Assembly (NCBI GenBank): GCA_965153455.1
Contig: OZ234494.1
Location: forward strand, 4,774,001 to 4,838,000
Length of the DNA: 64,000 nt
Reading direction: 5' to 3'
From: Sphagnum compactum
Lineage: Eukaryota
Below the pieces are notes generated by a model. That model worked only from the letters and a program-made list of their open reading frames with translations, ran no database searches and had not been told where the DNA came from. Made by a program: the position numbers and the translations under genes. This document shows positions 1-62,000 of this stretch, piece by piece (the first letter of the stretch is position 1; the number at the start of each line of letters is the position of its first letter).

Positions 1-2421
1 GGCCACTTTAGATGAGGATTGAAGGTCAAGGGTCTAATAAAATAGAGCAACCTTATTGGATGACAGCCATAAATTGGACCCACAACTTTCAGATGAGGGC
101 CCAAGACCAAAAAGTGGCAAATCAAGGCTAAATCTACATGGCACCATTTTGGAATGAAAATTTATTGGTTCAAACCCCCCCAAAAAAAAAGCTTAAAAAG
201 GCGAGCTCATGATTTGAAGAGCCAAGATGCAAGCTAGGGTCCAAGGGAGGGTCCAACCCAAGGATGCAAAATTTGCTTCAAGTGAGTCCAAATTGGTTCC
301 TACAAATTTGGACCATGGACCCCTATCTAGAGTGGGCCTTAGTATCTGGGCTTATTACTTCCAGAAAAAACATTACCTAGCCTAGTTGGATCCAAATCCC
401 TATGTTCAGAGTCAAGAACAAAATAGAGGATAATGTTGGCCAGAATTCCAAGTATCCTCAATTCCCAAGGACCCAATTCCCAAGGAGGTGAGCTCATTGG
501 GAATTGGGGATAGTTGAAATTATGGACCAACACTAATCTCTACTTCAAAGTTCATATATAACATAATTTAGATATTTATATATTCTTCAAGTATCCCCAA
601 TTCCCAAGGAGCCAAGGGACCACGTATGTGTAACTTATAAAATAAATAAATAAATAAATAAATAAATATGTAAATAAATAAATAGTTATAGAAGTAATAA
701 AGCCATGGGTGACGAGGTTTCAACTTCCCACACTTGTGTTGACTCAGCAGTGAGCACTACTACTACGTGTAACTTAACCACAAGTTAGGTGGAGAAGCTT
801 AAATGCGAAGAGGGGGGGGTTGAAAGAGAAGAAATGGCATAATTAAACAAATAAGTAAATAAAATAAAGAGGGGTGGGGAGCAATAAGGGCTAGTCTAGA
901 GGGGAGGGGGGGGAAGCATTGATGATACTAGACCTGTGGCTGCTTGCTGTCTTCATTATACACTCTTTCTCCTTCCCAGCTCCTCACTCCTCCCTCTTGC
1001 TTGTGTGTCTCCCTCTCACTCGCTCTTCTCTCTACCCAGTTGTTGTGTGTTTGTTTGTTGGCTGATTCATTCAGTAGCCTAGGCTAGTAGTGATGGTGGG
1101 TAAAAAACACAGGGTTGGTTGTTGGGTTTCCTCTTCTTCTTCTTCCTCCTCCTCCTCTACTTCCTTCCTTCCTTCCTTCCTTCCTCATTTAGGGTGGAGG
1201 GTTGCATGCATGTAATCTCTTTTTATTTCAATGTTTGGTGTGTGATAAAAGTCATCCTCTCTTGTAGTGGTACTAGCTGACTGACTGACTGACTGACTGC
1301 CTGACTGACTCCTGAAGAAGAAGTGATTTTGTTGTTGTGTTTTTTTTTCCTTCCATCACACAAAAAAGAATTTTTTGCCATCAGTTTTACACAAACAACC
1401 ACTAGCCTACAACTCTCTCTGTGTCTGACAAAAAGTGTGTGCAGTTAGAAAAAGTCTCTGCATTATTTCTGCACTTTCCTCACTGTTCTGCTGCTGCTGC
1501 TGCTAGTTGCAACATTCATAGCCGGGAGTGTATGTTTTTAAAATTTTATTTTTGGTTGAAGAGATTGGCGTGTGAACATCATCTCGTCCCTTACACGTCC
1601 TGCAGCGATCCCGTTCCCCGCCCCCCCCGGCAATGCTGCTTTCCAACGGGTTCTATAAGTGCCGTCCCCTGTGAACCGAACTGCTCAGTTGTTGTTGCAG
1701 CAGTAGCAGCAGTCTCTTCTTCTTTCCCCCCTCCAACGCACGCTGTCTGTCTGTCTGTCCGTCTTCTGTGTCTGTTGTTGTGCCTCTCACAGTCTCCTGT
1801 AGCTATTCCTCCTCCTCCTCCTCCTCTTCTTCTTCTTCTTCCTGCATAGATATATCGATAGATCTAACTTAACCCTCTTACAAGTCTTCTGTGAAACCTG
1901 CCTCACTAGTATTTGCTCATTCAATGACAATAATATTCGTACAAGCTCAAGAGGTGCTTGTAGACTAACTAGCTTCTGAACTCTGCCTCTGAACTCTAGA
2001 TCAGGTGGCTAGACTCCCCTGGGTTGTGGCAAAATCCTGCTCCGGTGGGCAGGCGGCTGCACTTGGACCCTGTATCTCTCTTTTCCCTTCTGCACTCTTC
2101 TCGGTCCGCATTCTTACTTCTGTTGTCTGTGATCTCGTGCTGCGTGCATTGGGTTTTGCAGTATTGTACTGTTGTTGCTGTTGTTTTTGTGGGTTTTTAC
2201 GTGTTGGAGTTTATGCACAGCAGCTCTTTATTTGTGGCTGCTGCTTTGAGCTGAGATTTTTCTTACAATGTAGCTGCAACCAACTACTACATTCTCTTCT
2301 TCAAAGTGATATGGTCATGCTGCAGAGTCTTGGATCTGTTCGACTCTTCTCCGCCGGCCTGACAGTCGCAGTACTAGAAATCAGGAGGAGCTGAATAAGG
2401 CTTCCACAAAAAAACGTGACA

Positions 2422-5400
2422 ATGACAACAGCAGCAAGTACTAGTTCTTCAGCTTTCAGTGGAGGAGGAGGAGGAGGAGGACCTCGTCTGAATATGGGCG
2501 GGTGGGGGGAGCTGCTGCAAGGAGGAGGAGGAGCGCCTGCTCTGCATGTGTCGACGTTTGCGATATTACTGTCCACGGCGGTATTAGCAACGGCGTGGTG
2601 GGTACTCCTGCACAGGTTGAAGCAACGACACTACAAGGGACCCAAGAGCTGGCCCTTACTGGGTTGCCTCCTGGAGCAGGCGGCCCATTTCGACGACATG
2701 CACGACTGGCTGCTGGATTACTTCAAGGATCTCCTTACCTACTCCGTGCCCATGGTGAACTTCAACAATACCTTCACCGTCGACCCTGCTAACGTCGAAT
2801 GGATCCTCAAAACCAACTTCAACAACTACCCCAAGGTTCCGGCACCTCATCCTGCAACACATTCATGCCCTACCTAGCATACCCATTCCATTCTCTCTCT
2901 TCACCGGTGCTCAGTATGTGACCCTGCAAATTAAATTTGGATGAACAAAAGTCAAAACATGCCGGTTTGGCTCCATCAGCAGAATATTGGTTTTGGCCCA
3001 GCATTTTTGCACAGTTGCCTGCTTTAGGCTGTTAAAAGGCACAGCAAAGCTTAACACCATCCCCTGCTGTTCATTGGCTACATAGTTTGATTGGTCCTCC
3101 AGGTGGGTTGTTATTAGTAGTCTCCCACCTATTGGCCCAGCATTTTTGCATAGTTTGCTGAGGCTGGTAAAAACGCACAGCAAAACCCAACACCTCCTGC
3201 TGCTGCTGTTCATTGAGGTGGGTTGCTATTAGTAGTCTGGACCCACCTATTTATTTGCAGTTCCAGTTTTAGTTTTATGGATGGGGCAGTTGGAAAAACG
3301 CAGGTAACTAAAACTTGGATGTGAGAATTATTTTTGCAGGGTCACTCACATGCTGAGCACCGCTGGAGATGCTCTAATCAAACCTCGAAACTAATAGAAT
3401 TCACGAAGTTTTCCAAGGGGGCAATCATGAGTTGCAACCCAAAATTCATTTTTCTGGTCTATGCTGCATATATATATGTGTGTGTGTATGTCTTGTCTAG
3501 AGTGCTTGCATGAGGCAGTCTAACTATCATGGGTGGTGGTAGATTTCTACAGTGGATTTGGTCTGAGAGGACTCATGGTGGCCAGTAGGGGGAATTTACA
3601 CTGTTGCATGGATATGAGGAGAACAGTACTCATGACATGTCTACCAAATCACATAACCTACTTTGACACTCCCTAATAATGTAATGTAAGCAATAAGGTC
3701 AGTGTGCAGCTATGTGTCTACACATGCACTTGGTTGCAGCTGTGAGCACTAGCTACAATTGGATTGGATGGTCAAGTTTAAGGAACTTATGATTCTGGTT
3801 GAAGAAGTTTAGGGCCAGTTGTAGCTACTCAGAGACTGAATGCTAACTGTTTACATGGCAACAGCAGCACCAGTCTAGCTCTCTCCTCTTAGATGTATCT
3901 CTGTTTAGTTGTGATGTTGCTGCCAGTAGATTTGCAAAAGCTTACGTGATTTGGGTTCAGAACATGCCTGGTGAATTACACCCGATATCTAAAGCCCTGG
4001 ACAAAACTGAGGAGGATATGAGCTATATGGCAATGACGAATGATGTCATTAATCCATCCCCTGTGACTCTAATTGTTGCAGTCACATCTGTTCTCCTATC
4101 AAATGCTTCACCTGAAGCTGATTTGTTGAGGCACAAATGATTAGCTAGGGTACCCATCCAAGCCCACACCTTTTTAAGGTTGGCATCTTCTGGAGAATAT
4201 CTGTGGACCCCACCATCAAAAAAGAGCATTGGTGGTCCTTGAAGAGGTTTTTCCAAGAAAATGTGAGAAATTCCGGTTGCAAATTTCATGTCCTGTTCGA
4301 TCTCTTTATGACATGAATATTGAATCTTCTTGCTGTCTGGATATTGTCAATTCAGGGGGAGTTGATCAAAGAGCGGTTTGAGGATGTGATGGGGCATGGG
4401 ATCTTCATTGTGGATGGTGAGCAATGGAAACATCAAAGGAAAGTTGCCACTGTTGAGTTTTCCTCATCAAAGTTGAGAGACTTCAGTGTGCATGCCTACC
4501 GAAGTGGAGCCTTGAAGCTTGTCCAAGTCCTTGCCATAGCTGCCAAGAACCATGAAATTGTAGACCTCCAGGTATGTCACTTATTATGCATGGTCACCAA
4601 GTGCACCTCTCTAAGACATCAAAATTGTTCTTGAACCGTACCCACACTGATGTAATCGAATTGCCCTGATGCAGGATCTGTTTATGAGATTAACACTTGA
4701 CTCCATTTGCAAAATCGGATTTGGTGTTGAGATTGGGTGCCTATCACCATCGCTACCAGAGGTGCCATTTGCAAAGGCCTTTGATGAGTGCAATCGACTT
4801 GTCATTCGCCGCTACATTGACATATTCTGGAAGATCAAGAGGGCGCTAAACATTGGTACTGAGGCTCAGTTGCGGAAAAACATTCAGGTCATGGACTCTT
4901 TCCTGTACAAGGTTATTGAAACCCGGCGCGCAGATGTAGATGCTGCTAAGGCCCTTCATCAAAGCGAGGTAATCAAATCTTCCACTGCATCACCTAATCT
5001 TAACTGCTGAAGAAGTGAGACGACAGTCTCTTCAGTCATCCCAAGCCTTGTTTAAGGGTATATGAGGGTTGTTGGTCTCATTCCCATCTGCCATGCAGGT
5101 GAGAAATGACATACTGTCAAGATTCATGGCAAAAGATTTGGCATGTGATGGGGAGGTATATGATGACAAGAAACTCCGGGATGTGTGCATCAACTTTATT
5201 GTAGCAGGACGTGACACCACTGCAGTCACTCTCTCATGGTTCTTCTCTGAGCTTTGCAAGCACCCTGAGGTTGTGAACAACATTCTTGCTGAAGTTTCTG
5301 AAGTTTTTCACAAGGAGCAGGAGTCAGTCCAAAATGGCAAACAAAACAAAACAAATTGCAACGGAATCAGCTTTCAAGGGTTAGGGGACCAGATCCTTGA

Positions 5401-6142
5401 GTTTGCACAAAGGTTGAACTATCAAAACCTTGCTAAACTGCATTATTTGCATGCTGCCCTGACGGAGGCCCTCAGGCTCTATCCAGCTGTTCCGTTGGTA
5501 AACACTTCTCCATCCCCCCATCTATCTATTGTGCCAATCTGCACTCAAAGATGAGATAGTTTCCCATCTCATTGTAGATCACAAGATGTTAGGTCTTGAG
5601 TAGTGACAGGCATGCATGGGTTGCATTTACAGGAGACCAAAGCAGCAGTGAATGATGATGTGTTCCCAGATGGCACAGTTATCAAAGGGGGCAATTTTGT
5701 GAGCTTTGCACCGTATGCAATGGGTCGGTTGGAATGTCTGTGGGGGCCTGATGCATTGGAATTCAAGCCTGAGCGATGGTTGAAGGATGGTGTATTTCAG
5801 CCAGAATCTCCATATAAACTCACTGCTTTTCAGGTGGGCTACTAATCTATAAGGTTTGTTCTGGATTTATGTGTACCCCATGTTAAGGGAATTATCACGG
5901 AATCACTCATGGACAAATGATCTCATGATGATCTTTGCTTGGATGCATGAATCCAACAGGCTGGTCCAAGGATGTGTTTGGGGAAGGATTCGGCTTACCT
6001 CCAAATGAAGATGACCACACTACTACTCCTTCAGTTCTTCAATTTTGAGCTAGTCAAAGGCCAAAACCTTAACTACTCCATGATGGTTATTTTGTCCATT
6101 GCAGGCGGCATGAAAGCACACATAACCCAGAAAACGATTTAA
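2422..6142 (+). CDS. CYP704B: Cytochrome P450, CYP86 clan, CYP704B-like fatty-acid omega-hydroxylase (about 568 aa, 6 exons)
   Basis: Exons 2422-2835, 4356-4571, 4675-4968, 5099-5497, 5633-5833 and 5960-6142 join through phase-0 GT-AG introns into one open frame (alternative ATG at 2494). Motifs: N-terminal TM helix, I-helix NFIVAGRDTT, ExxR (EALRLYP), FKPERW, and heme motif FQAGPRMCLGKDSAYLQMKM. QDLFMRLTLDSICKIGFGVEIG is also CYP704B-like. Confidence 0.93.
2898..3374. mobile_element. PIF/Harbinger (Tourist-like) MITE in CYP704B intron 1; left TIR eroded
   Basis: Right end ...GCTGGAGATGCTC is followed by TAA (3375-3377). Subterminal inverted repeat GGTGCTCAGTATGTGACCCTGCAAA / TTTGCAGGGTCACTCACATGCTGAGCACC. 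Same family as 12444-13041. Confidence 0.7.
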
Positions 6143-12443: not shown

Positions 12444-13041
12444 GAGCATCCCCAGAGCTGCATTCAGTATGTGACCCTGCACGTTACAATCGGATGAAGA
12501 AAAGTCAAAATGTGCCGGTTTAGTTCAGGAAAATAGTTTTGCTCCCCTACATGTTCTCAGTTTGCTGAGCCTGGTAAAAGCTGTGCACCTGCTAGTGAAG
12601 AGTGTAATAAATATGATTGGCAAAACATAATGATTGGTCTAGGCGGTTTACTAATTAGTATTTCCCACATACCTGCTAGTGAAGAGTGTAATAAATATGA
12701 TTGGCAAAACACAATGATTGGTCCAGGTGGTTTACTAATTAGTATTTCCCACATACCTGCTAGTGACGAGTGTAACTAATATGATTGGCAAAACATAATG
12801 ATTGGTCCAGGTGGTTTACTAATTAGTATTTCCCACATACCTGCTAGTGAAGAGTGTAACTAATATGATTGGCAAAACATAATGATTGGTCCAGGTGGTT
12901 TACTAATTAGTATTTCCCACATATTTGCAGTCCCGGTTTCAGTTTCATGGGTGGTGTTGCAAAAGAAAAAAGTGGATGACTAAACTTGGTTCTGAGAAAT
13001 ACTTTTGCAGAGTCACATACTGAGTACTGGTGGGGATGCTC
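12444..13041. mobile_element. PIF/Harbinger (Tourist-like) MITE about 445 bp upstream of the BtaB ATG
   Basis: TIRs GAGCATCCCCA ... TGGGGATGCTC are flanked by a TAA duplication (12441-12443, 13042-13044). Subterminal IR TCAGTATGTGACCCTGCA / TGCAGAGTCACATACTGA. Confidence 0.85.
12587..12922. repeat. 4 x 84-bp tandem array inside the MITE
   Basis: Units start ACCTGCTAGTGA at 12587, 12671, 12755 and 12839; each carries two ATTGG (reverse CCAAT) motifs. Confidence 0.92.
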
Positions 13042-13485: not shown

Positions 13486-15999
13486 ATGGAGTATGTACGC
13501 AATGTGTGCAGTGATATACAGGTGCTGCGTACCATGTGGTTCTCAAAGATAGCCGGTGACACTCACAAGGAGCGCCTGGAATGCTTCTATGGTCCTCAAG
13601 CTCATGCATGTAAGCTTTGTTTCTTGTTATGCTTCTATGTCCTCAAGCTCATGCATGTAATCTGTACATTTCTCTCTCGTTTTTTTGGGGTTTAGGGTTT
13701 AGAACTGCCACCATTGCACTAGTGGAGATATTATGTAGCTATGCGGTCCAGAATTTTTTTTCATTTATTTATTTATTCTTTTGATGGTCGGGCAGGGATT
13801 CCAGGTTTTGTCAGTGATGATTGATAGAGACAATCTTAACCAAATCCAGCAAGCACTTGCATGCTAGATCTTTACATGCGATGGTCATAGCAGCTCCAAT
13901 TAGTTCATTAGGCCAATTGGTTACGTATCTAGAAGTGTGTGGATGAAATGTCTCTCTTTAGACTTGAGCCAACCATGTTGCAGCATGTAAGAGCTTGGAA
14001 GCACATGAAGATGGAAGTCATATGCAAAAAGTTGTGCATGTCACTGACATGTGCTTTGTCATTGTGGCAGTTAGATCAAGATCCTAGAGCTTTTTGATAT
14101 ATGTATAGCAAAAGTAAAATTTATTTTTTCTTTCAATTGATTGGGATGCTCTATTAAGAATAAGTGGAGATGTATACAGATGACCACTTTCGAGCCAGAT
14201 TCTTACATGGGAGAGAGGGAATGCTTAAAGTGTGTGCACAAGAGATGAAAAGGTTGCAAAATCAAGATGGTCTTGTGTGGGTTGACCTTGGAGGGGGAAC
14301 TGGACAAAATGTGGAGACCATGGCTAGGTTTTTTGATATCTCTCAGTTTGAGAAAATATATGTAGTCGACATCTGTGGTCCCCTCTGTGAGATGGCAAGA
14401 AAGAATGTCAAGCAACGTGGGTGGACCAATGTTGAGGTCTTTGAGGCAGATGTTTGTGAATTCAAACCTGAAACGGCACCTGCTACTCTCATTACATTTT
14501 CCTATTCACTTTCCAGTAAGTATACCTCTAGCCATTGCATGACACTAAACCAGTTTATTATATATCTAGGGTTAGGTGTGCTCACCCCTGTGATCAGGCT
14601 GCATGCAGGTGAGGGATGCTGCAAGTCCTTAAGAAAGATGGACTCAATTGGTGTCTACAGGAAACAAAATGGGCTTGGAATCTTTCATTGAGGTCTTAAT
14701 GTGAACCGATGTCAGGAGGATTCTTTGAAACCTTCAATGTATCCATAATAGCATCAACATCGACTAGGAATTTAGCCTGTCTCTGTATGCCTTCGACTTG
14801 GATGCGTGCTTCTACAGGGACAAGCTAGAATGAAATGAAGCTTACCCGCAGAAGCTAGTTGCTGCTTGACTGATGATAATATTGACTTTTTGATTGGCTA
14901 CACATCTTGAGTGCTAGCCAACATCATGACTGAATCTTCCCATTCCTTCTGGAAATGCTACAGATACTCAGGGGACAGATGTTTACCCTAGGTTTTTGAG
15001 CAGATGTATTACTAATCTGTCGATCAAATTAGTATCTACATATCTACACCCACTATTGGGAGCCTTATGACATCAGTAGGGAGTAACTTCAGCCAGTCAC
15101 TGCCATTCATGATGAAGGTGATGGTCTGATACTTGGTGACTGATGCAAGGTTATGACTTACTGTGTTCATTCTTGTTGTGTTTTGGTTGGGTCTGAAATG
15201 ACACAACACTTATTTGGTTACATCACATGTTTTTGTGGAGTTTGTCTCTGCAATCCCTGTGATATTTGAGTGAAACTTGTGATGCTATATAAACAGCTGC
15301 AGCATGGAAAAGTGAACCATCTTAGCAGTTCCCCTTTGGCTTGCAGCATCTTTTGTTCCAGAAATTGCTTTTGGGCTAGACCCTGCTGTGAAATAAAAAC
15401 CCTCTTGTTGCATTGAGTGTCATGAAGAGATCTTCTCCTCAGTAGTAGATAGTAGTGATTGCCCTCCCTGACAGATTCTACTTTTGCATGGACTAGTGAT
15501 TCCTCCATTTTTGGACGCTGTGGACAAAGCTGTGTCCTATCTGGATCCTGCTGTTGGCATTATTGGTGTAGCTGATTTCTTCACTTCATCAAAGTATGAC
15601 TCCCCTGCCCGACAACATAGCTACTTGACTCGCTGGTTTTGGAGATGCATATTTGATCTTGACAATGTTGACCTGGGACCTGAACGGAGGCAATACCTTG
15701 ACCGTGTGTTCAAAAAAGGTAGGTCTTTTTCACCTTAAGAAGGGTAAAAACCTCAGATCTTGTTGATGTAGCACCTTGATTCTTCCTGTTCTTTGGCTTC
15801 TGTGTTTGTCATACCAAGGCATCTAGATATCTTCTTAGATCATTTGGACTGTTGCCAGAAGATATCTGGATTCATTGGATTTTCTGACACTGCCTTGTGG
15901 ATGATGTGTGTAGTATATGAGGAAAACAGGACTGGATACATTCCATATGTGCCACTGCTGAAGGTCCCTTATTACATATGGTTAGGGAGGCTAAATTAA
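13486..15999 (+). CDS. btaB: SAM-dependent N-methyltransferase, BtaB-type domain of betaine lipid (DGTS) synthase BTA1, encoded alone (255 aa, 4 exons)
   Basis: Exons 13486-13609, 14180-14515, 15497-15718 and 15914-15999 are GT-AG and phase-consistent (768 nt). Motifs RLECFYGPQAHAYDHFRARFL, WVDLGGGTG (SAM motif I), ATLITFSYSLSMIPPF, GVADFF, IFDLDNVDLGPERRQYL and IPYVPLLKVPYYIWLGRL match the N-terminal half of Chlamydomonas BTA1 as I recall it. Confidence 0.9.
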
Positions 16000-18900: not shown

Positions 18901-21277
18901 ACAGTCTCTCTGAGGAACTGTGTAGTCTTTCCGGGTATTCTAGCAAAACCCAAGTCTTAAAGGTTCACAAGTCCTGCGCTTAGAAATAAAATCCTGTCAC
19001 AGGTGAGTTGGGTAATGTGCAGAGGAACACCCATAACAGCAGCATCACTGGGGATCACATGCATATTTGCACACTAGGTAACTCTCAATAATGCATATCC
19101 GAGCTGGAGCTGTCCCCTCTCATCACTTTTTGCCTTGCTCATCCTCCTCGGCATTTCAGCTCCCCTGACTCCTTCACAATGTAACAAAATACATGTAGCT
19201 GATATAGATGTTGTTAAGAGAGATGTCTCAAGATTGTAACAACATGTTTATCAGCTACAGAACACCCATTGTGGGGACACCTGAAGCTTAGATCAGCCCA
19301 TCACCCAAAAGAAATTCATACTTTTGATAGTCAAAAAATAGAATAATTGTAATCTTTCCTTTCAGCTTACTTATATAGGTTATAAAGTAAGCTTTGGCAG
19401 AGTGTACTATCGGGAACAACGTGAGGAACATGTGAGAGCTTGATGAGAAAACATTGTGAACCACCAAAATCCAAAAAATTCCAAAAATCTCACCCCTCCC
19501 CGCCTCCACCCTTTCCTTCTTGAATTTCTACTCTGCCTGCGTTCCTCACCATTCTTGGCCCAGGCTAATGGCAGGGCTGTGGAAGGGTGATGACTATGTT
19601 GTGAGAAGCTAGTCCTACCATGGTTGCTATTCATGATGAGCTTCTAATCTGACCCTTTGTGAGTGCCAATCATAAGTTAATGACAGCACTCATTCTTCAT
19701 GTTCTCATCTGACATGTTCAGCCCCTAACACAAACATTTTATCGATTTTCCCACCACTCTTTTATAGTCTATACACTCCTAATTGATCAATATATATATG
19801 AAATAAACAAAATCTTAAGTCAATTTCACCTATTTCCATGCTTGCTTGACCTTCCATTCATATTTTTTCATTTTTAATGTTAATCGCAACATTTCAAATC
19901 CTTGATATTCACTAAGTGAACTATCAATTTGACTTCCATGAGTGTCGTACCTATATTGATGTCTATGTTTATCCCAATAACACGCCGAATCACAAGGCAT
20001 TCACTTTACTAAAAGTTTATTAATGCTTAATTCAAAAAACCTATATTCATCCTGAGGGAACATAATGGTTTGATATATGATGCCAATGTTGATGATTTTA
20101 ATGAACATTAATAAATACACATGAGTTGGTAACCATCTTTTATATTTTGTTAATCCTTTAGTATAAATAGTTACAATGTCCTTCTCTAACATCCATACCT
20201 TAGTTCCCTGATGAAGTTTAATAAAAATCAATTCTTTCACAACTTTCAATAATTCGTGGAATCGATCTGCAAAGTGATTTCACTTATCTTGTTTTGGCTT
20301 ATTCCTCAAGGTATGTATGAAATCATTGGATGCTCAACCATAGTGGCAATGTTGTCTTAACACTTCCTTTGCTTGTTCCACTATTATAATAATAATTATT
20401 ATTATTTTTACATTTTAAGAATACCATTATAGTGTCAAATTATCTATGTTGTTTCAAATCATTCATCATAAGTGAATAGATTTGTGAAAGTTAACAACCA
20501 ATATGCTCCGTAAACTCAATGGTTCTATTATCAAACTATCCTTTTCTAATATGTATGCTCTCATATTGAACCCTTTTTCCCAATTCCTTTTAGCTAGCAT
20601 TCTATTGATTAATAAATTTAACCAACAAAATTTTAAATCACACTTATACGATTTCGCCCATTCTTGAGTAGAGTTTGAAAATATTGATTTTTTTCATTAT
20701 AATTTCAATGTTGAAAAACCTCTTCAATAGAATGTCAATAGGTTGATATATCTCATTTCCATAATTGCAATGCTAATAAATCTTTTAATTATAATCACAT
20801 TCTACTTGAAGAAGATATTTTGGCATCCATATTTTAACAAGTCTATTAATATCTTGATATTCACACATTCAACCCAATCATTGATATATACAAAATGATA
20901 AGTTGCTAATATTCAAGTTGTTAATATTTGGTCAATTCTAATGAGAATCAACAAGCATACAAGTATTAGAAGCCATTTCATGGCATTTGTCAATTGGGAT
21001 ACATCAATAGCTAAAGTGCAAGCTTTCAAAATTCACACCATTGTATTATTATGAAGCTTTGTAAAAATAATATCCTAAATATTTATCAAAAGTGCTTTAA
21101 ATTGATCAACAAAACAATTTCAATCAGCATTTTTAGGTTGATTTCTTGGTGTTGGTAAGAATTCTTTCTATGTCCAACCATACATACAATGACTTTTAAT
21201 TAATTTGTTAGCATCATATTTGTACACATTCTCAACAATTATTTAATCCCAAGCATTTTGATACTCCTTTTACCTAA

Positions 21278-21544
21278 TGTTATGGACCGACTAGAAACAA
21301 GTGGAGAATTACAAGACAAGACAAGCTTTATTGATCCATCAACTGGTGTTGATCTGCTAAAGGGTTGTTCCCCAGACTATCTTCTTTTATAACCCTGAGC
21401 CATACTAGTCCCAAAATATCCTAGGCCATGATATTGCCAAAAGTATCCCAAAATATCCTAGGCCATGATATTGCCAAAAGTATCCCAAAATATCCTAGGA
21501 CATGACATTGCCAAAAGTATCCCAAAATATCCTAGGCCATGACA
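21278..21544 (-). repeat. 3' LTR (267 bp) containing about 3.6 x 37-bp tandem units (21410-21544)
   Basis: Matches 27082-27348 except at one base (G21499 vs A27303). On the - strand, TATAAAA starts at 21391 and AATAAA is at 21332-21327. Confidence 0.97.
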
Positions 21545-24500
21545 TTATCCTCTCCTCAAGCGACATCTTCTAGATGGAGCCGGTTTGTTAGGATATCGTT
21601 GGTGAAACCGATTAACTAAGTCTTGGGCATGAACTAGGTTTCCAGCAGGCTCCCAAGTAGCTTCAGAAGGAGGATAACCTCGCCAAAAGACAAGGTACAG
21701 GAGCTTTCCACGAATCTTCTTGGAGACCAAGACCTCCTGAACTTCAAACTCTTCTTGGCTTTCAATTTCGACTGGAGCTGGGGGTTCTTGATGACGTTCT
21801 GGGATCGGGTTTTCATGATAGGGCTCAAGTAGAGAGACATGGAAAACATTGTGGATTTTGAACTGGGGTGGAAGCTCCAACTGGCAAGCCACTAGACCAA
21901 CCAATTTGGCGATTTTGAAAGGTCCGAGGCGCTTGTAATCCAACTTGGCACATGGGCGAGTGGTAGCAATGTTCTTTCTGAGAAGCCAGACCTTGTCTCC
22001 AACCTTGAAGTTTGGATGGTCCTTGCGTTGGCGGTCTGCTTGCTTCTTTTGCCACTCCTGTGTTAGCTTGAGTTCTGCCATAAGGTTCTGTTGAACCTGT
22101 CCAAGCCTCGTGGCCCTTTCTTTAGCCGAGGGGTTTACGGAGTCTCCAGGAATTTCAAGGCTGAACCTGGGATGAAAACCGTAATTGGCAAAGAATGGAC
22201 TGATCCCGGTCGATGCATGTGTTGTGTTATTATAAGCAAACTCTGCTTGAGATAGTAGGTCCAGCCAGTCGTCCTGTTGGTAGTTCACAGCGCAGCGAAG
22301 GTATTGCTCGAATGTCTGGTTTGTCCGTTCGGTTTGTCCATCTGTCTTAGGGTGGAAAGCTGAAGATAGCCGAATGTCAACTCCAAGAAGCTCGAATAGA
22401 CGATGCCAGAACTTGGATGCAAACTGAGGACCTCTGTCGGACACAATTTCCTCGGGGAGTCCATGTAGTCGGACGATCCCGTCCAGAATTAACTGAGCTG
22501 TCTCTTCTGCCGTGATTGACTTGGAACAAGGGGTGAAATGGGCCATTTTGGTGAGTCGATCGACCACAACCAGTATTGAATTCTTGGTTCTGACAGTAGG
22601 GAGGTCCGTGATGAAGTCCATTGCAATAGATCCCCAAGGTCGGCTAGGAATCGATAGAGGCTGTAGGAGTCCAAACGGGCGATGCCTGGGAGCCTTGGAT
22701 CGAGCACATGTATCACAAGACTTGACATACTCACGTAGCATCTTGTTCATTTTGGGCCACCAGTAAGTCCTTGACACTAGTTCGTGAGTCCGTGCCATTC
22801 CAAACTGACCTGCCAGGGTGTTGTTGTGGCATTCCCTCAGGATTTTTAGGCGTATAGGTCCTTCGAGTACATAAATTAGGTTATTTCGAAGGAGAAGTCC
22901 GTCTTGCTGCTCAAATTGATCCAAGTCATCACGATTTGGGTTCCTTGGTCGTTCCTGGAGTTCCTTCTTGATGTTGGTAGCCCAGGTGTCTTCCTCAGTT
23001 GCTATCTTGATGTCCCTGACAAGGTATGAGTCTGGGAGGGTGCTGATTGTTGCTGCAACTCGAAATTGCTTGGGGTTGAGTAAAGTCTGGTTCTGCTGAC
23101 CGTAGGCCTCATCCCCCGCTCGAAGTTCATATTCTGAACGACGAGATAGCGCGTCAGCTTTCCCTTGTTGGGTGCCGGGTTGATACTGAATCTCAAAGTC
23201 GAAATCAGCTAGGAAGATAGACCAGCGTGCCTGGCGACGATTTAAGGTACGAGTAGTTGTGAAATAAAGGAGATTTTTGTGATCTGTCAGAACTTGGACT
23301 CGATGTTGAGCTCCGGCAAGATACGGTCTCCACTGCTCGAATGCCGTGATGATTGCCAGGAGTTCCTTATCGTAGACCTGGTAGTTGATTTCGGCACTGG
23401 TTAACTTCCGTGAATAGAAAGCAACTGGATGCAGCAACCCATCTATTCCAAATTAAGATAGAATAGCTCTCAAGGCAAAATCTGAAGCGTCCGTTTCCAC
23501 AATGATGGCTTGGTAGGATTGGGATGTATCAGGATGGGTGCAGAGGTGAATGCCATCTTGAGAGTATCAAAAGCAACCTGGGCCGTTGGATTCCACGAGA
23601 AAGGCTTGTCTTTGCAAGTCAGGGTTATTAACAGTGTTGTGATCTTGGAATAGCCTTTGATAAACCGACGATAGAAGTTGGCAAACCCTAGGAAGCGTTG
23701 AACGTCCTTGACCGAGGATGGAGTAGCCCAACACTGGATGGTCTCGACCTTTGACTTGTCCATGAAAATGCCATCTGGAGAGATCACGTAGCCGAGGAAC
23801 GCCACTGAAGATTTGTCGAATTCACATTTTTCCAACTTGGCGTATAAGCCATGCTCCCGCAGCGTCGCAAGCACCAATCGTACATGTTTGTCGTGGGTTT
23901 CCTGGTCCTTGGAAAAGATTAAAATGTCATTTAAATAGACCACGACAAATTCGTCCATGTAATCCCGGAAGATATCATTCATCAGATGCTGAAAGACTGC
24001 GGGTGCATTGGTGAGGCCGAAGGGCATGACCGTGTATTCGAAGTGGCCATAGCGTGTGCGGAAAGCTGTCTTCCATTCATCACCAGGGCGAATCCTGAGT
24101 AAGTTGTAGGCTCCACGGAGGTCAAGCTTGGTGAAGATCTTCCCGGTACGTAGTCGATCTAGGAGACCTGAAATCAAGGGCAAAGGATATCGATTCTTTT
24201 TGGTTATCTTGTTGAGTCCACGATAATCCACACAAAGTCGAAGGGAGCCATCCTTCTTCTTGACAAACAAAATTGGGGCGCCGGCTGGAGACTTGGAATG
24301 CTGAATGAACCCCTTGGCAAGATTTTCAGTAAGGTAATCACGCAGGGCTTGGAGTTCCGGTTCCGATAGGCCATAGATAGGATCAAAGGGTGGTGACTGT
24401 CCTTCTTCTAGATCAATCGGGCAGTCATATGGACTATGGGCGGGGAGCTGATCAGCATTAATCTTTTAAAAAACATCAACAAAGTCCTTGTACTTCTTGG

Positions 24501-25302
24501 GAAGTTTGACAGGTGTTGGTTCCGATTGGGGGTTTGTGGTGTTGGCTGGGTTGACATGGATGGCGAAGACTTGAAGATTCTTAGCAGCCCGATAGAAAGG
24601 GACAGCTCTATCAACGAAGATCTGGACACGGTTGGTTTTTTGGGCAGAATTCTTGACAAGATTCTTGACAGGACAAGGTTTCGTTCTGACCAATCGGGGG
24701 TTCTTGACTGCAGGATTTGACATAATAGACTTGATAAAACTGGAATTGGTTCCGACCCTCTTTGGGTTCTCGACCACAGGGTTCTTGGCAGGACTGGACA
24801 AAGTGTTTTTCTGAGCGTGGGGTTCTTGAGAGGTGCATCGTTGTGCGCTGAAGGTGAGGGTTCTAGATCGCCAATCAATGATAGGGTTGTGTGCTTCTAG
24901 CCAAGGCAGACCAAGGATGATGGGATGGTGAGGGGTGGAAATGATGTTGAGAACAATCTTCTCCGTGTGCTTACCGATACAGAGTTCTAGAGGGGTTGTC
25001 TCGTGTGTGATTGCACCAGAAGCAATGGTTCTCCCATCAATAACCTCTACCGGAACAGGGGTTGACTTCTTGACCACAGGGATGTTGTGTTGGACGACAA
25101 ATGTTTGGTCGATGAAAGAAGAGGTGGCGCCGAAGTCCACCAAAGCTGACACTTGTGGTATGTCTTCTGGAATACGAATGATGTCCACATACTGAGTGAA
25201 ACTGGGACTGGGACCAACAGCGGAACAGGATCCTTTGCAAAGGTGGTGTTGGGTGAGATCCAGTCGCACGGCTCTAACTGTGACTGGATGTTCTTGTTTT
25301 CC
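21545..25302 (-). pseudogene. pol: Retrotransposon pol (PR-RT-RNase H-integrase-chromodomain), disrupted
   Basis: PR ALVD[F][36 protein letters not shown][N][11 protein letters not shown] and YDKELLAI; IN MDFIT / SDRGPQF / DGQTERTN; chromodomain EEFEVQEVL..YLVFWRGYPPSEATWEP. In-frame stops at 24466-24468 and 23453-23455, and a 1-bp deletion near 23505. Confidence 0.95.
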
Positions 25303-25331
25303 AACTCCTGGGGAGTTTCCAGAGCTTGTAC

Positions 25332-26249
25332 CTAAAGTTTGACAAGCTTTTGAGGGCATTGACGAGCTATATGCCCTGGGTTGCCACAGTAAAGACATAG
25401 ATTGTTTGTCCTTCGACGAAGTTTCTCGGCTTCCGTCAAAGATTTAAACTTAGCTGTGTCGATCTGCATCGGAGCAGGTCCAAAAGAGGCAGGTCGGGCA
25501 ACTAGTGTTGTTTGGGGAACTAAGGGGAGCGTAATAGGCCGACTGTTCCAAAGCTGGGCGTTGGAGGTGACTTTCTTTTTCTGGCGACGTTCGAACAGAC
25601 GATTATCGCACTGAATTGCCTGGGTGATGGCTTCACTGAAGGAAGAAGGGTCTGCAAGTGTCAACAAAAGATCTTGAACATCATCACGAAGCCCACAGCG
25701 AAACTGATCAATCAAGGCAGCTTCTCCCCAATTGACGTCACAGGCAAGCTGCCTGAATTCTGAAGCGTAGACGATGGCCGAACGTGTCCCTTGCTGGAGG
25801 CGACGCAGCTTGTTGGCTGAAGTCCTGGCCTTATCACTGTCCCCAAATACTGCTTCAAATTCCGCCATAAAGGCGTTGAAATCTTGTAGAAGAGGGGATG
25901 ATGTTTCCAGGATGGGAGCAAACCATGCTGCAGCTGTCCCAGTGAGTAGGGTTCCAACGAATCCTACACGAGTGGTGTCATCAAAATAACGACGGGGGTG
26001 TAGTTGCATGATCAGGCGTACCTGGCTAACAAAGCCTCGAAATTTGAGGCGCGTTCCATCAAACTTTTCTGGCAGACTTATCTTGGGTTCTTGGGCGGCC
26101 ATTGCAAGAGCAGGAAGTACTGGGGCAGGAGGTGGTGGCTGATTCTGTAGGCGGGTCACCGAGTCTCTAAGCATGGCATTTTCTTGTTGAAGGTGTTGAA
26201 GGGCGGCGAGGATTTGAGTGAGATTGATGTTGGATTCTGAGTTGTCCAT
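25332..26249 (-). CDS. gag: Retrotransposon Gag (PEG10/Tf1-like capsid plus CCHC zinc knuckle)
   Basis: ATG at 26249 in ACCACCATGG context; EPKISLPEKFDG, LRRLQQG..YASEFRQLA, GPAPMQID and CLYCGNPGHIARQC. The TAG at 25332 may be a premature stop. Confidence 0.92.
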   Translation of the reverse strand: MDNSESNINLTQILAALQHLQQENAMLRDSVTRLQNQPPPPAPVLPALAMAAQEPKISLPEKFDGTRLKFRGFVSQVRLIMQLHPRRYFDDTTRVGFVGTLLTGTAAAWFAPILETSSPLLQDFNAFMAEFEAVFGDSDKARTSANKLRRLQQGTRSAIVYASEFRQLACDVNWGEAALIDQFRCGLRDDVQDLLLTLADPSSFSEAITQAIQCDNRLFERRQKKKVTSNAQLWNSRPITLPLVPQTTLVARPASFGPAPMQIDTAKFKSLTEAEKLRRRTNNLCLYCGNPGHIARQCPQKLVKL

Positions 26250-26287
26250 GGTGGTAGTTCTCACACTTTTGCGCTTTCAATCTTCAA

Positions 26288-26940
26288 ACTTGAAACTTCA
26301 GATGCTTGGATCTCTCTCAATACAAGTCCAAATGACATGAAATTTCTCTCACACATATATTCTTATATGATCTATAAGATCACAAAGTTACAGACCGAAA
26401 GAAACTTAAACAAAGGAGATATGACCAAAAAACCAGATCTGCACTTGAAACTTCAGATGCTTGGATCTCTCTCAATACAAGTCCAAATGACATGAAATTT
26501 CTCTCACATATATATTCCTATATGATCTATAAGATCACAAAGTTACAGACCCAGAAAAGCTTACACAAAGGAGATATGACCAAAAAACCAGATCTGCACT
26601 TGAAACTTCAGATGCTTGGATCTCTCTCAATACAAGTCCAAATGACATGAAATTTCTTTCACACGTATATTCCTATATGATCTATAAGATCACAAAGTTA
26701 CAGACCCAAAAAAGCTTACACAAAGGAGATATGACCAAAAAACCAGATCTGCACTTGAAACTTCAGATGCTTGAATCTCTCTCAATACAAGTCCAAATGA
26801 CATGAAATTTCTCTCACACATATATTCCTATATGATCTATAAGATCACAAAGTTACAAACCCAGAAAAGCTTACACAAAGGAGATATGACCAAAAAACCA
26901 GATCTGCACTTGAAACTTCAGATGCTTGGATCTCTCTCAA
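26288..26940. repeat. 4.2 x 155-bp tandem array in the retrotransposon 5' leader
   Basis: Units start ACTTGAAACTTCAGATGCTTG at 26288, 26443, 26598, 26753 and 26908. Confidence 0.95.
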
Positions 26941-27069
26941 AACATATCCTTTTCTTTTGAAACTTTGAGAGTAGAAGCGTCCTATAGTCTTCTATAACCT
27001 TTCCAAGTTTCACTCCAATATACCTCTAGCTACTTACTGAAACAACAAAACAAACAAACAAGAAGAAGG

Positions 27070-27079
27070 AGCAGATCAA
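27070..27079 (-). promoter_or_regulatory. Non-tRNA primer-binding site (TTGATCTGCT), complementary to the predicted 5' end of the element RNA
   Basis: Lies 2 nt inside the 5' LTR boundary and lacks TGG. It is the exact reverse complement of AGCAGATCAA (27162-27153, - strand), which starts 33 nt after the LTR TATA box. Confidence 0.75.
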
Positions 27080-27081
27080 AC

Positions 27082-27348
27082 TGTTATGGACCGACTAGAA
27101 ACAAGTGGAGAATTACAAGACAAGACAAGCTTTATTGATCCATCAACTGGTGTTGATCTGCTAAAGGGTTGTTCCCCAGACTATCTTCTTTTATAACCCT
27201 GAGCCATACTAGTCCCAAAATATCCTAGGCCATGATATTGCCAAAAGTATCCCAAAATATCCTAGGCCATGATATTGCCAAAAGTATCCCAAAATATCCT
27301 AGAACATGACATTGCCAAAAGTATCCCAAAATATCCTAGGCCATGACA
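27082..27348 (-). repeat. 5' LTR (267 bp)
   Basis: Direct repeat of 21278-21544, followed by the CCTAA TSD. Confidence 0.97.
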
Positions 27349-30300
27349 CCTAAACCATTTTGTGACAAATTGTTTCCCATGAGAGAACAGTTGTGGAAAA
27401 TCGCATAAAAGTTTTGTGCCTATAAAAAATCTTTTATTATATATGTTACTAGTTTCTTAACACAAATAACCCCAATAAAATTATATTTTCTTATTTTTTC
27501 ATCCCATTTGTTAAAAGTAACCAAATAACATAAACCCAATTTTTACACATTCACCTTAGCTTCTCCCATAAGTTGATTATTTGAAGAAAATTATTCCTAC
27601 CATGGTTGCCAAATGTTAATAATTTTTAAAAAAAATTATAATTAAATTTTTATCATCACTAGGTTCTTGTCCATCACATTACCCTAAACACCAAGTGCTA
27701 GAATAACCAAGGTAGTCTTCAATATTGGAAATGTTTTTTATACCTTTGCATTGTACTACAACTACTCATTAAACTAAGTACCAATTCTTCTCCCACAAGC
27801 ATGTCACTATCATTGCCACTAACCATCTTAGGTCATGTTAATATTTTGTAGATATGAAATACAAGACAATGGACCATATTCATTGTGATCAAAACACTCA
27901 AACACACACACAACCATTTTGAGAAATCATGTCCATGGCAATCAAACTATTATACAACTATAGCTCCAAAATAATTAACTTTGCTACAATTGTCCCATGG
28001 AAATATCAGGAATTAATAAATAAAATGCCATATCACAAAATTAGGTAGTTGTATTGTGATTGTAAGTTAGTTGCAAAATGAACATCTATACCTTAGAATG
28101 TACACATTGTAAATATAGTTGTAACTAACCATCTTTGACATTGTTGACAAGTTACATTTTAGTAACTTGTGACAATTACATTACAACTAAGGTAAATGTA
28201 GCACCCAATCAACAATTACTTTGCAACTAGTGTACGGCCTTGACACATATGATCAAGCCACATGTATACATTTTCACTGCCCATTAGATATAACATTATC
28301 AACTTGTTTGCAATTAGTTGTGAACTACAATTCCCATTGATATAACTAGTTGTGCCACTAGGTTGTCACTATTTAAGTATTATACTTTCATTATTTTATG
28401 ACTATTTTTCAACTATTTTATTATTAGTTTTCCACTACATTGCAACTCATAACCTCATGTTACCCTACAAACCTACCATACCATAAAATTCATTAAAATG
28501 AAAATCTACTTTTGAAATGAAAATTTTAAAATGTGTATATTACAAATTCAATTAAGGTGTAATATGGATATGCCTTTACATACCTTGATATCGTATAGGT
28601 TGAAGGTTCTTATTCTTGTTATTGAAGGTTGAAAGTTTATGATTTATGTTTTGCGAGATGTTTATTTGCATATATATTAAAGAAAAATGGTACAAGAAAA
28701 TCTTTTATTCTCTTAAAAATAGTGTAATTTACAATGATGAAGGATTTATGTGGGGTGAATTTTTTTTATGGGAATCATGTTGTGGCTTTTGTTTGAGTAT
28801 TGGAATTTTTAATTTAGAAGGTTGAATGGAAATGAAATTAATTTGATTAAACACACATTTTTTTGGGTGCATTTATGATATTTTTGTTGTTCTTGTGTTA
28901 TAAGGTCGAACCTTGATCATGTTTGAATCCATCAGAATTAAAGTTGTGCATACAATGCAAGGTTTTTTCAAAAATGAAAGGGTGGTCTTATTTGAAAAAT
29001 ATAGTTTTGAATAGAAGAACATGCACATGTGATGTTGTATAATTTGGTTAGGTTGTTAATAATTATGTAATTGAATGTGTTGTTGTTTGTTGTGTAGTAA
29101 TCCAAACCGATACATGTAAGAAAGCAAATTTCAAAACAACAATGGTGAAGTAAGAGATCAAATATGGCAAATTCTAACCTCAATACTCCAAGAGTGTAAT
29201 GCATTTTATTTTAATAACCACCATTGTATGCAAATGTAGTTGATTGTAATTTAATTTCTATCAATGTTATGTGTGTTTCCATTTTAGTGATAAATATGTT
29301 TTGTTAGTGGCACTATAGTTGTAAACTAATTTTATTTAAGTTGAAAGGATGGACATTTAGATATCTTTTTGCATTGCAATGTTATGTATATGTTATTGAT
29401 CTCATTTCACATGTGACATTGAATGTCATAATATGGTAGATTTCAAACAAACAAGGTTAAATGAAGAAATTAAGGTTCAAGTTCCATTTCAACAAAAATA
29501 AATAAATAAAAAATTTATAGAACATAATGTTTTAGATGACAATATGTGGTTGTTTAGGTAGAAATTTTTTTTTGCTATAAATAGCTTTGGCAATAAATCT
29601 AGATTTATAGTCAAATTATATTTCAATAAAAAATCTTTAAAAAAATGCTTTTGTAATTCATTTTCCAACCTTGAATGTTAATGAATACAATTTTAGATCC
29701 ATATTATGTTTATAAATAGTGATGGAATGTAGTTTTGCACTTGTTATCATAATTTGGACAATGATAATGTGTGTGCAAGGTCTACACAATGACGTTGTAA
29801 GTTGTAATTTAGTTGTCCAATTCCACTAAAATCAATTGCCATACAATTACATTGGAACCCATAACTAAACATTTAGTTGCAAAGGACATCAATAGACTTT
29901 ATTTGTCAATGGATGAATGAAAAGTCAAGTAAACATTAAGTTTGATGATGGATGAACGAAAGGTCATGCAACTTAGGTTTGTTGATGGATGAATAAAAAA
30001 TCGCACAAAAATTAGGGTTGTCAATGGATGAACCTACCTAGTAAAAATTCCATAGTAGTTACCTAATTGCCATTTGCAAATTGGGTACATTGCAATTACA
30101 CACAAAAACAACCTTGTGTTGATGTGAGTTGTCACATAGTTGCCCATTAGTTGTAACCATTAATAGCTTTCCACTGCACTTGTAAGTTGCAAATAAGTTA
30201 CAATAGAAATCAAAGTTCATCATTGGTGAATGGATGAAAATCAACATTGGCATGACATTATAATGGTAGTTGCAAACTAGTTGCATTAAAGTTGCACAAT

Positions 30301-59046: not shown

Positions 59047-62000
59047 ATGTCGGCGGTAATGACGTCGAGCTTGCAGCATGGCCACGGCGGGGGCCAGACT
59101 GTGGTGCCCATGCAGTTCCAAGCTGCAGCACAATGTGCCGTGCAGGGAGCCGCGAGGTCGATGCAGCAGTCGTCCTGGGTACCCGCGAACTCGTCGCTAT
59201 TGCAGCTGGAGGCGTCGAGCTGGACCAAAGATCAAATCATCCAGCTCCACGACCGTACTAGTCCGACCAACCACAAGAATAATATGCACAGCACTAGACA
59301 TCACGTTGAGCAGCAGAGCAGCAGCTACAAGCCGAAATCAGCATGCAGCAGCACCAGCAGCAGCGATGATCTTCATCAGCTCGCGGATCATGCACTAGTT
59401 CAAGGTTTTCGCCAGTTTGCACCATCGCTGGAGAATCAGCAGAGTGATCTCCTGGTAGAAGTTGCAGACATCAACTTCCATCTCCACAAGGTAAAAAATA
59501 CCAGCTCTCATGAAATCCTCATGATCAGTACTACGCAACTAGATCCAGAACTAGAGAATATTGTCGCTGATCATCTAGACTTTCATCTGTACAAGATCAT
59601 GTGTGATGGACTAGTGCAGCAGCTAGTCCTGACGGTATTGCAGTGGGATTTGATTTGCATCTCATGTGTGGCCGTGTGATTGTAGTGGCGTTTGTCGTCA
59701 AGGAGTGCGCTCATCAGACGTCTGCTCGCGAGTTCTCACGACTTGGATCACATCAAGCTAGAAGCCATGCCGGGGGGAGCTCAGGCTTTTGAGCTAGCAG
59801 CCAACTTCTGCTACGGCATCACAGTGGAGTTCAACTCCGCCAACATCGCAGCCCTGCGCTGTGCTGCGCACTACCTTGAGATGAGCGAGGAGCTTGAGCC
59901 AGGAAACCTTGCTTCCAAAGCGGAAGCCTTCCTCAGCTCCGTCGTTTTGTGCTCCTGGCAGGACTCCATCACCGCACTTCAGTGCTGTGAGACTTTGCAT
60001 CCATGGGCAGACAAGATCCATCTCACCACAAGGCTTGTGGAAACTATTGCTTCCAAAGCAGCTTGCACTGCTGCTGATCCTCAAGCTTGGTCCTATTCAG
60101 AGCCGCGACCCATCATGTCGTCCATGAACTCATGCAGCAGCACTCCTTGCACCCCAAGGACAAGCTTCAGGAACGATCAGCAGCTAGTGTCAAAGCACAC
60201 AGTTTCTGCTTCTGCAGCTACCAAGCAGCAGCACATCTGCACCCAGCAGTTGGTGCAGGACTCTGCATGGTGGTTTGAAGATGTTGCCAGTTTGAGTATT
60301 GGGTACTTTACCAAAGTTCTTGCAGCAATGGAATCGAAGGGGAATCTGAAACCTCAACTGCTTGGAGCAGCTCTTGAAGTTTATGCCCACATATGGCTTC
60401 CAGGATTCACGATCAAAGTGCAGGCAGCTGCTGCAACAGATTTTTCATCAAGCAAGGATCACATAAGTGCTGCTACAAGTAACAGTTTCTTGAATAGATC
60501 CAAAGATTCATCACCCACCAAGTTCTGGCCGATCAATACAAAGGGTGCAGGATCAGATCAGTCGCAGCAGCAGCTGCTACATGCAGGAGCAGAAGAAGAT
60601 TCACAAGTACAAGCTGCAACAAAATTGCATGAGTTTGTAGCGGAGCAGGATAAGAACAGAGAGACTTTACAAGCTCTGGTGAGTTTGCTGCCGCCTCATG
60701 AGAAGGATGATCATGCGGTATCATGTAGTTTTGTGCTTGGCTTGTTACGTGCAGCGAGTATGTTGAATGTGGGAGCTGAATACAAGCGGGAGCTGGAGAA
60801 GAGAGCTGCCATGCACCTGGAACAAGGAGTTACATTGAGTGAGCTTCTCATTCCTTCCTTCTCCCACACCAGTGAACATCTCTACGATGTCGACCTTGTT
60901 CGTCGCATCCTTGAGCACTACTTGGCACAACTGCAGCAACAGGTGAGGACTATATATCATGTGTCTTAACTGCACTGTTTATTTTTTTGGGTAAAGGAAT
61001 AAAAAAGAATGCATGGACCTTCATATTCCATCTATTGCAAACTGGATCACAAAAAGGACATTCTTGCAACATCATTTCTACCACGTGACTCCTTATGATC
61101 ATGATCTTCATTGAGTCTCTGGATTTTGTTGGCACGTGGTGGTTCTTGCAGCACGACCAGACGAGACCAGGCACCCCAAGGAACAACTCTGAGAAGTCTA
61201 GTAGCTGCGCCAGAACTACAACTGGTTTAGTTAATATGTTTGAAGGTGCTGCTACTTTGTCAGCTGCTGCTCATCAGATGGCAGTAGTGTCAAAGCTGCA
61301 GTCTTGTTCTCCAGCTCAGGCTGCTGCAGCACCCAAACTGATGAAAGTGGCAAAGCTGGTGGAAAGCTATCTTGCAGAGGTAGCAAGAGATAAGAAGCTA
61401 CCTGTTAGCAAATTCCAGGCGCTTGCTGAAGCTCTGCCAGAGTTTATGCGCATCTCTGATGATGGACTATATCGAGCAATTGACACTTATCTTAAGGTGA
61501 GAAGCTGAGAAACACTCATCTCTACAGGTCTTGTCACCCCATGATCCCCTTCATTACTGAATACTTGTTTTAGGGTATGAACTTCAGCTCAAGGCTAATT
61601 TCTCTACAATGAGCTTGTTCTTCTTATTGGAAGCTCAGGTGCAGAGGAATTGCAGGAGGGAAAAATGTAGAGTAAATCAAGGATTCCCAAACATCTTTAT
61701 CTGATGCAATGCCAAGTTCACGGTCATGGAAAATTTTGTTGCAATGTGCTGGGTGATAATTTCAGGCACATCCCTGGAGGGTTAAGAGAGCCTAAGCTTT
61801 GTATCTGATGCAATGCCAGCTTCATGGGCATGAAATATTTTTGTTGCAATGCATTCATGGGCTTCATGTGGAAATCTTTTTGTTTGCAATGTGCTGGGTG
61901 ATTGATTTCAGGCACATCCAGGGTTAACAGAGCATGAGAGGAAGAAGCTTTGTCGAGCATTGGACTGCCAAAGACTCTCAATGGATGCATGCATGCATGC

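Follow-up and report, generated by a model that had tools for sequence, protein, structure and literature searches.

How does an LTR retrotransposon begin reverse transcription when the bases behind its 5′ LTR lack the TGG with which a tRNA 3′ end would pair? The question is raised by a Ty3/gypsy chromovirus that lies on the − strand of a 64-kb stretch of moss DNA (the window, which denotes the whole stretch that was analysed). One precedent is Tf1, in which the transcript's first 11 bases pair with the primer-binding site and RNase H cleaves between bases 11 and 12 (PMC7175516). Self-priming has also been proposed, from complementarity between LTR and primer site, for Tcn1 of Cryptococcus neoformans (PMC7175516) and for Tj1 of S. 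japonicus (PMC4600332). Neumann et al. (2019) distinguish six clades of plant chromoviruses, and according to their main text most plant Tcn1-clade elements, which are those of mosses and club-mosses, have no tRNA sites and are predicted to self-prime (PMC6317226). Tcn1-like elements have been described in Physcomitrella and Selaginella (Novikova et al., 2010, PMC2864245); in the sections of that paper on SM-Tcn1 a primer site of neither kind is reported.

An earlier note on this DNA had proposed that the element self-primes through a 10-bp duplex. Our analysis supports that proposal, since the two arms are placed as a Tf1-type mechanism would need and the arrangement recurs, with compensated changes, in relatives. 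The locus very probably holds a recent, coding-defective chromovirus copy of the Tcn1/Tf1-sushi kind that would start reverse transcription in the manner of Tf1.

Structure of the element

The element spans 6,071 bp (27348..21278, − strand) and is flanked by the same five bases, TTAGG, on both sides (upstream copy 27349..27353, downstream copy 21273..21277). Its LTRs are direct repeats of 267 bp that begin with TG and end with CA (5′ LTR 27082..27348, with the terminal CA at 27083-27082; 3′ LTR 21278..21544). They are identical at 266 of 267 positions, the single mismatch being at LTR position 46. A polypurine tract, GAGGAGAGGATAA (21545..21557), was read directly from the sequence and adjoins the 3′ LTR; together, the TG..CA repeats, the target duplication and this tract mark the locus as an LTR element. 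The 5′ LTR carries a putative TATA box, TATAAAAG (27188..27195), and further along a putative polyadenylation signal, AATAAA (27136..27131), which the earlier note had also read within the LTR.

The gag gene (25332..26249, first ATG at 26249, stop codon included) encodes a capsid-like region and a CCHC zinc knuckle (Pfam Retrotrans_gag, 7.6e-17; Ty3_capsid; zf-CCHC). Pol lies in the −1 frame with respect to gag, opens with the part for an aspartic protease (24469..25443; RVP_2, 1e-7) and continues with reverse transcriptase (23473..24465; RVT_1, 6e-36) and with a segment that holds RNase H, integrase (H2C2, core and SH3 parts) and a chromodomain (21548..23452; RT_RNaseH, Integrase_H2C2, rve, SH3_Tf2-1 and Chromo, 4.5e-13, the last at residues 569-619 of the last ORF). 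The order gag-PR-RT-RH-INT with a C-terminal chromodomain on the integrase is that of a chromovirus, in agreement with the first reading of this DNA. The best solved relative is the Ty3 polyprotein, for the reverse transcriptase (4.1e-69) as well as for RNase H-integrase (1.7e-64); among PDB entries Ty3 is present and Tf1 is not.

Translation in three frames revealed that pol is broken at three places. An in-frame stop (24468..24466) separates protease from reverse transcriptase, and the junction of reverse transcriptase and RNase H (23453..23510) contains a frameshift near 23500 and a second in-frame stop (23455..23453). With these lesions the copy cannot itself make reverse transcriptase, RNase H or integrase, and it could move only with proteins supplied by intact family members. 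The near-identity of the LTRs nevertheless points to a recent insertion. Two stops and a frameshift beside LTRs that match at 266 of 267 positions mean either that an already-defective copy was inserted a short time ago or that the damage followed soon after insertion. The window holds no second copy of the element (blastn and tblastn).

Two sets of repeats lie outside the coding region. Between primer site and gag, repeat detection located a tandem array of ∼ 5 units of 155 bp (26288..27052), of which the units are 95-97% alike and the last one 77%. The U3 region of each LTR (27213-27348 and 21409-21544) contains short tandem repeats based on the motif GGCCTAGGATATTTTGGGATACTTTTGGCAAT, which lie ∼ 74 bp from one another and are 95% alike; these may be promoter or enhancer repeats.

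The site behind the 5′ LTR is complementary to the predicted start of the transcript

The terminal CA of the 5′ LTR is followed by a two-base spacer, GT (27080..27081), and then by TTGATCTGCT (27079..27070); TGG is absent. All 10 bases of this putative primer-binding site are complementary to AGCAGATCAA (27162..27153, hereafter the 5′ arm), which lies within the LTR, so that a self-complementary site begins 2 nt from the LTR end. The first base of the arm, A27162, is located 33 nt past the first T of TATAAAAG (27195) and is preceded by pyrimidines, which makes the arm the predicted first 10 nt of the transcript and the predicted self-primer. The 3′ LTR has its own copy of the arm (21358..21349). 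The sequence behind the LTR (27081-27070), the complement inside the LTR and its distance from the TATA box had all been pointed out before our analysis, and every position proved exact.

A match of this length and position is unlikely to have arisen by chance. The 10-mer of the arm occurs three times on the two strands of the window (in the two LTR copies and, as complement, in the primer site) versus 0.29 expected occurrences. Only two of 5,528 internal 10-mers have their reverse complement in the LTR, the primer site being one and the other lying at internal offset 3453. When the LTR was shuffled, 15 of 20,000 shuffles gave a complement of at least 10 bases to the first post-LTR bases, counted at offsets 0-4 after the LTR (p ∼ 7.5e-4). 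The predicted leader (27162..27060) folds with −23.7 kcal/mol (z = −2.6), which 3 of 200 shuffled sequences equalled. All 10 arm pairs close this minimum-energy fold, which also draws on the two spacer bases and on an inner stem.

The duplex co-varies in related elements

We aligned the integrase with 19 relatives and took 80 related loci (37-60% identity) from metagenome contigs. The layout of TATA motif, 31-34 nt, arm, LTR end, 0-2 nt and complementary arm recurs in these relatives with other arm sequences. Self-BLAST yielded 11 loci with bounded LTR pairs clear of contig ends, and TGG follows the LTR in none of the 11, as in the window element. Five of them (L036, L056, L063, L073 and L074) have an exact post-LTR complement of 9-12 nt that lies 63-77 nt before the LTR end. 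L054 has 10 pairs, one of them G:U, and L048, an older copy, has 7. Three further loci (L006, L010 and L019) have only 8 contiguous pairs and a bulge, between the LTR end and a stretch about 90 nt upstream, and may thus prime in a modified form of this design; a TATA motif at the usual distance was not found in these three. They form a separate clade with LTRs of 570-680 bp, and their 8 complementary bases extend to 13 via the one-base bulge. The remaining locus, L014, showed nothing convincing: its best match, of 8 nt at a distance of 167 nt from the LTR end, resembles a chance match and was set aside.

The closest relative that retains its 5′ region is L002 (59% integrase identity; the clade of the window element, L001 and L002 has a support of 99). 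Its LTR starts with TGTCATGG, a TATA motif stands 31 nt before the arm AAGGTGAACAA, and the LTR end, ..TAACA, is followed by GT and the site TTGTTCACCTT. The flanks are identical in both elements (CACCAGTT behind the arm, TAACA|GT in front of the site and CCT behind it) and allowed the arms to be compared by anchored position; a MAFFT alignment of the leaders had put the L002 arm in a gap. Three of the 10 base pairs of the duplex differ between the window element and L002, each changed on both sides, and L002 has one extra pair. On this comparison the differences are compensatory changes between sister families. A further compensated pair distinguishes L036 from L063. Co-variation of the two 10-mers, which the earlier note had named as a check, is thus seen between related elements.

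There are 8 distinct arm cores in all. Among the 14 elements that we tabulated the arm begins with A in 12 and is preceded by a pyrimidine in every one, and the distance from TATA motif to arm is 31-35 nt in those elements where the TATA pattern matched.

A strict scan required CA, 0-4 nt and an arm of at least 9 nt, with its complement 45-160 nt upstream at a distance of 28-38 nt past a TATA motif. Across 552,959 nt (80 loci, both strands) it returned 13 sense matches versus 0 antisense matches; L004 is counted twice among the 13, once for each LTR copy. A match at 891 of L006 is probably unrelated, as it lies outside the LTR pair of that locus, and a match in L025 lies downstream of its pol with an arm of the L075 type and so belongs to a neighbouring element. 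A looser scan, which tolerated one mismatch or G:U pair, recovered the signature in 10 of the 38 loci whose expected 5′ region is represented by 500 nt or more, with an antisense control of 0. By these looser criteria 28 of the 38 testable loci are without the signature, although in some the junction may fall outside the scanned part, and we therefore make no claim of universality. Dropping the TATA filter makes the scan too noisy to serve by itself, with 25 matches in 5′ regions versus 7 in coding sequence and 16 antisense.

Folding of 13 relatives from their predicted start placed the arms in pairing in the minimum-energy fold, fully in 12 and at 10 of 11 positions in L073; since these relatives were chosen for their arms, the pairing is partly by construction. 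In a FastTree integrase tree of 84 rows, many of them without a signature score because their contigs lack the 5′ end, elements with the signature fall on both sides of the midpoint root.

In some relatives the primer site recurs directly upstream of the point where transcription is predicted to begin. This copy measures 9 nt in L002 (1968-1976; 0 of 367 control windows were as good) and 8 nt in L056 (about 1388-1396; 1 of 883), and in both it forms an inverted repeat with the 5′ arm. L046, L073 and L074 have a 6-nt version, and the window element has no such copy. At positions 404-5765 the L002 contig runs from the end of one pol through a single LTR, a primer site and gag to another pol, 79% like the earlier one, which reflects either two related elements that share one LTR or an assembly join.

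Relationship to known elements

In the integrase search the 8,000 best candidates were scored and 6,916 proteins had E ≤ 1e-20. Three of the 120 listed relatives carry an organism name, Absidia glauca (49%), Ustilago sp. (40%) and the amoebozoan Planoprotostelium fungivorum; there is no seed plant among these three, and the nearest organism-named relatives among the matches listed are fungal. The Absidia protein falls in the sister group of the window element's clade in the FastTree integrase tree. Matches in the ESM Atlas are taxonomically mixed (Chordata, Streptophyta, Basidiomycota, Mucoromycota) and do not place the element. An F, a W and a Y of the chromodomain align with aromatic residues of CDY-like and SUV39H1 chromodomains, at positions that we take to form the methyl-lysine cage. 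In the 2019 survey an aromatic cage is given for 95% of Tcn1 chromodomains (PMC6317226).

These features indirectly suggest that the element belongs to the fungal-like Tcn1/Tf1-sushi kind, and its host is probably a moss. As far as the plant Tcn1 clade is characterized in the main text of the survey, the element resembles it in the retained cage aromatics, the moss host (the clade being one of mosses and club-mosses), the fungal nearest named relatives, the apparent lack of a tRNA primer site, the self-priming signature and the short length of ∼ 6 kb (PMC6317226). It differs from that clade in the 155-bp tandem array of this copy's leader.

With Ty3 of Saccharomyces cerevisiae the element shares the domain order; Ty3 itself lacks a chromodomain and is primed by a tRNA. 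Tf1 and Tf2 of Schizosaccharomyces pombe, the founding self-primers, are likewise elements of the Ty3/gypsy kind with a chromodomain integrase. They too have a site by the 5′ LTR that is complementary to the start of their own RNA, a start that is predicted in our case, and a leader predicted to fold with the arms closing the structure. Tf1 has a single ORF, whereas gag and pol of the moss element lie in different frames. The start site, the RNase H cut and priming have been proven by experiment for Tf1, whereas here they are predicted from the sequence. The duplex is 11 bp long in Tf1 and 10 bp here (PMC7175516).

Tcn1 of C. neoformans and Tj1, which we liken to the moss element by description only, are Ty3/gypsy elements proposed to self-prime on the same kind of evidence; they have fungal hosts, and Tj1 has been shown to transpose. 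SM-Tcn1 has separate gag and pol frames, as does the moss element, but in the passages of the 2010 paper on SM-Tcn1 self-priming was not found, whereas the signature is clear here (PMC2864245).

The implied novelty of self-priming in this element does not stand. The main text of Neumann et al. already expects it of the majority of plant Tcn1-clade elements, in mosses and club-mosses (PMC6317226), so the kind of element is one already described. Our literature search for Sphagnum together with chromovirus, Tcn1 or LTR retrotransposon found no joint description among the papers listed. The main text of Neumann et al. does not mention Sphagnum, and the per-element primer-site lists (Additional files 1 and 5) may include Sphagnum or this family (PMC6317226). 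What the locus adds is a well-bounded self-priming example of the Sphagnum type with covariation support.

Sequencing runs over the LTR and primer site

The public runs listed for the element number 24. Part of its sequence is present in 20 of them, and six are on record as RNA, labelled moss or plant metagenome. Contigs (Logan) of two DNA and two RNA-library runs were placed on 27000-27420 at a likeness of at least 80%. The LTR bins reach a summed word depth of about 1e4-2.5e5 versus 19-124 in the unique flank, a measure that is not a copy number but suggests that the LTR is much repeated and the family repetitive.

No variants at or above 5% are listed within 27070-27079 in the two DNA runs that cover the site. 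The sole listed variant within the arm is a minor form at 27160 (C to U on the − strand), with which G:U pairing would still be possible; a variant at 27163, one base ahead of the arm, is common in one run.

Contigs of the RNA libraries cover U3 and continue into the polypurine tract from a loose end at 27348, and they therefore derive from 3′ LTR contexts. One such contig, from a single study, ends without a loose end at 27109, 22 nt after AATAAA, which is no proof of polyadenylation; nor do RNA-library contigs of this sort prove transcription. None of the contigs of the two RNA-library runs begins near 27162 and runs into the primer site, which neither supports nor refutes the predicted start site.

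A model for self-priming and its alternatives

The complementarity, its position, the missing TGG and the compensated change in relatives support self-priming of the Tf1 type, and we propose the following sequence of events. Transcription would start ∼ 33 nt after the LTR TATA box, at or beside A27162, as the TATA spacing and the pyrimidine/A context suggest. In the cell the first 10 nt of the RNA would fold back on the site two bases past the 5′ LTR. By analogy with Tf1, the RNase H of the element would cut behind the paired stretch, and the freed 3′ end would serve as primer for minus-strand DNA across U5 and R, which would then be transferred to the 3′ R. R itself is predicted at about 27162..27110. 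A host tRNA would not be required.

Minus-strand synthesis must start exactly at the LTR end if the LTR is to be rebuilt, and this is where the duplex sits, separated from the LTR by a spacer of 0-2 nt; no other candidate primer site is visible. The geometry is also that of Tf1, for which priming is proven by experiment (PMC7175516). Both points argue against the most durable of the alternatives, namely that the 5′ end and the post-LTR site pair for packaging, dimerisation or translation control while priming is done otherwise. We consider this improbable, even though covariation proves pairing and not priming. The primer-site copy upstream of the arm in L002 and L056 hints at further structures, and SM-Tcn1 of Selaginella is presented without a tRNA site or self-priming, its mechanism being left open in the text on that element (Novikova et al., 2010, PMC2864245).

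It is less probable still that the post-LTR site pairs with a tRNA of the host, with a tRNA half or with some other small host RNA, the match in the LTR being incidental. Half-tRNA primers do occur in plants, but in the main text of the 2019 survey such sites are limited to Ty1/copia lineages (PMC6317226). A loose TYGAT-like core is common to the primer sites of different families and could hint at a common primer; yet at 3 of its 10 positions the site of the window element departs from that of its closest relative, each difference being matched in the LTR, which would be unexpected with a shared host primer. The relatives moreover keep the LTR complement 31-34 nt past the TATA motif, and the TGG with which the 3′ end of a tRNA would pair is missing. 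A search of the window and of 30 of the 80 related loci gave no tRNA genes with which the site could be compared.

That the complementarity is a functionless chance match is the least credible reading: the second internal 10-mer with an LTR complement (offset 3453) and the many chance matches in scans without the TATA filter give it some footing, but few shuffles reach 10 bases, the match sits where it is expected, at the LTR end and 33 nt past the TATA box, and the layout recurs in relatives with compensated changes and 0 antisense matches.

Self-priming in this element would be in line with the published opinion that replication starts alike in the Tcn1 clade of mosses and club-mosses and in the Tf1/sushi elements of fungi and vertebrates, a likeness that has been used in the argument for ancient horizontal transfer. 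The result opens no new question and its practical value lies in annotation, as tools that seek only tRNA primer sites will call such elements 'no PBS'.

The observations can be combined into a broader reading, which we offer tentatively and regard as rather doubtful. The duplex would co-vary across moss and fungal-like families while keeping its distance of 31-34 nt from the TATA box, and would so amount to comparative proof that the ancestor of the entire Tcn1/Tf1-sushi radiation already self-primed. The family in Sphagnum would be present in great abundance, with recent activity and possibly with transcription in wild peat moss. The upstream primer-site copy of some relatives could, by folding into a hairpin in the 3′ U3/R copy, hide the primer's downstream copy. 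We know of no description of a primer-masking hairpin layer of this sort. If this reading were true, ancestral self-priming would rest on more than pattern matching in single elements.

Genomic surroundings

An NPH3-like exon at 59686..60966 has its best named matches in Sphagnum troendelagicum (77%) and S. compactum (75%) and matches JGI proteins at 91-95%. Together with the moss and plant metagenome labels of the RNA libraries, this exon suggests that the host is a moss, most likely Sphagnum or close kin. Host exons around the element lie at 2395-5554, 14164-14691 and 59008-61508 and are cytochrome P450-like, methyltransferase-like and NPH3/RPT3-like. A tandem array of ∼ 6 units of 84 bp at 12503-13006 is unrelated to the element.
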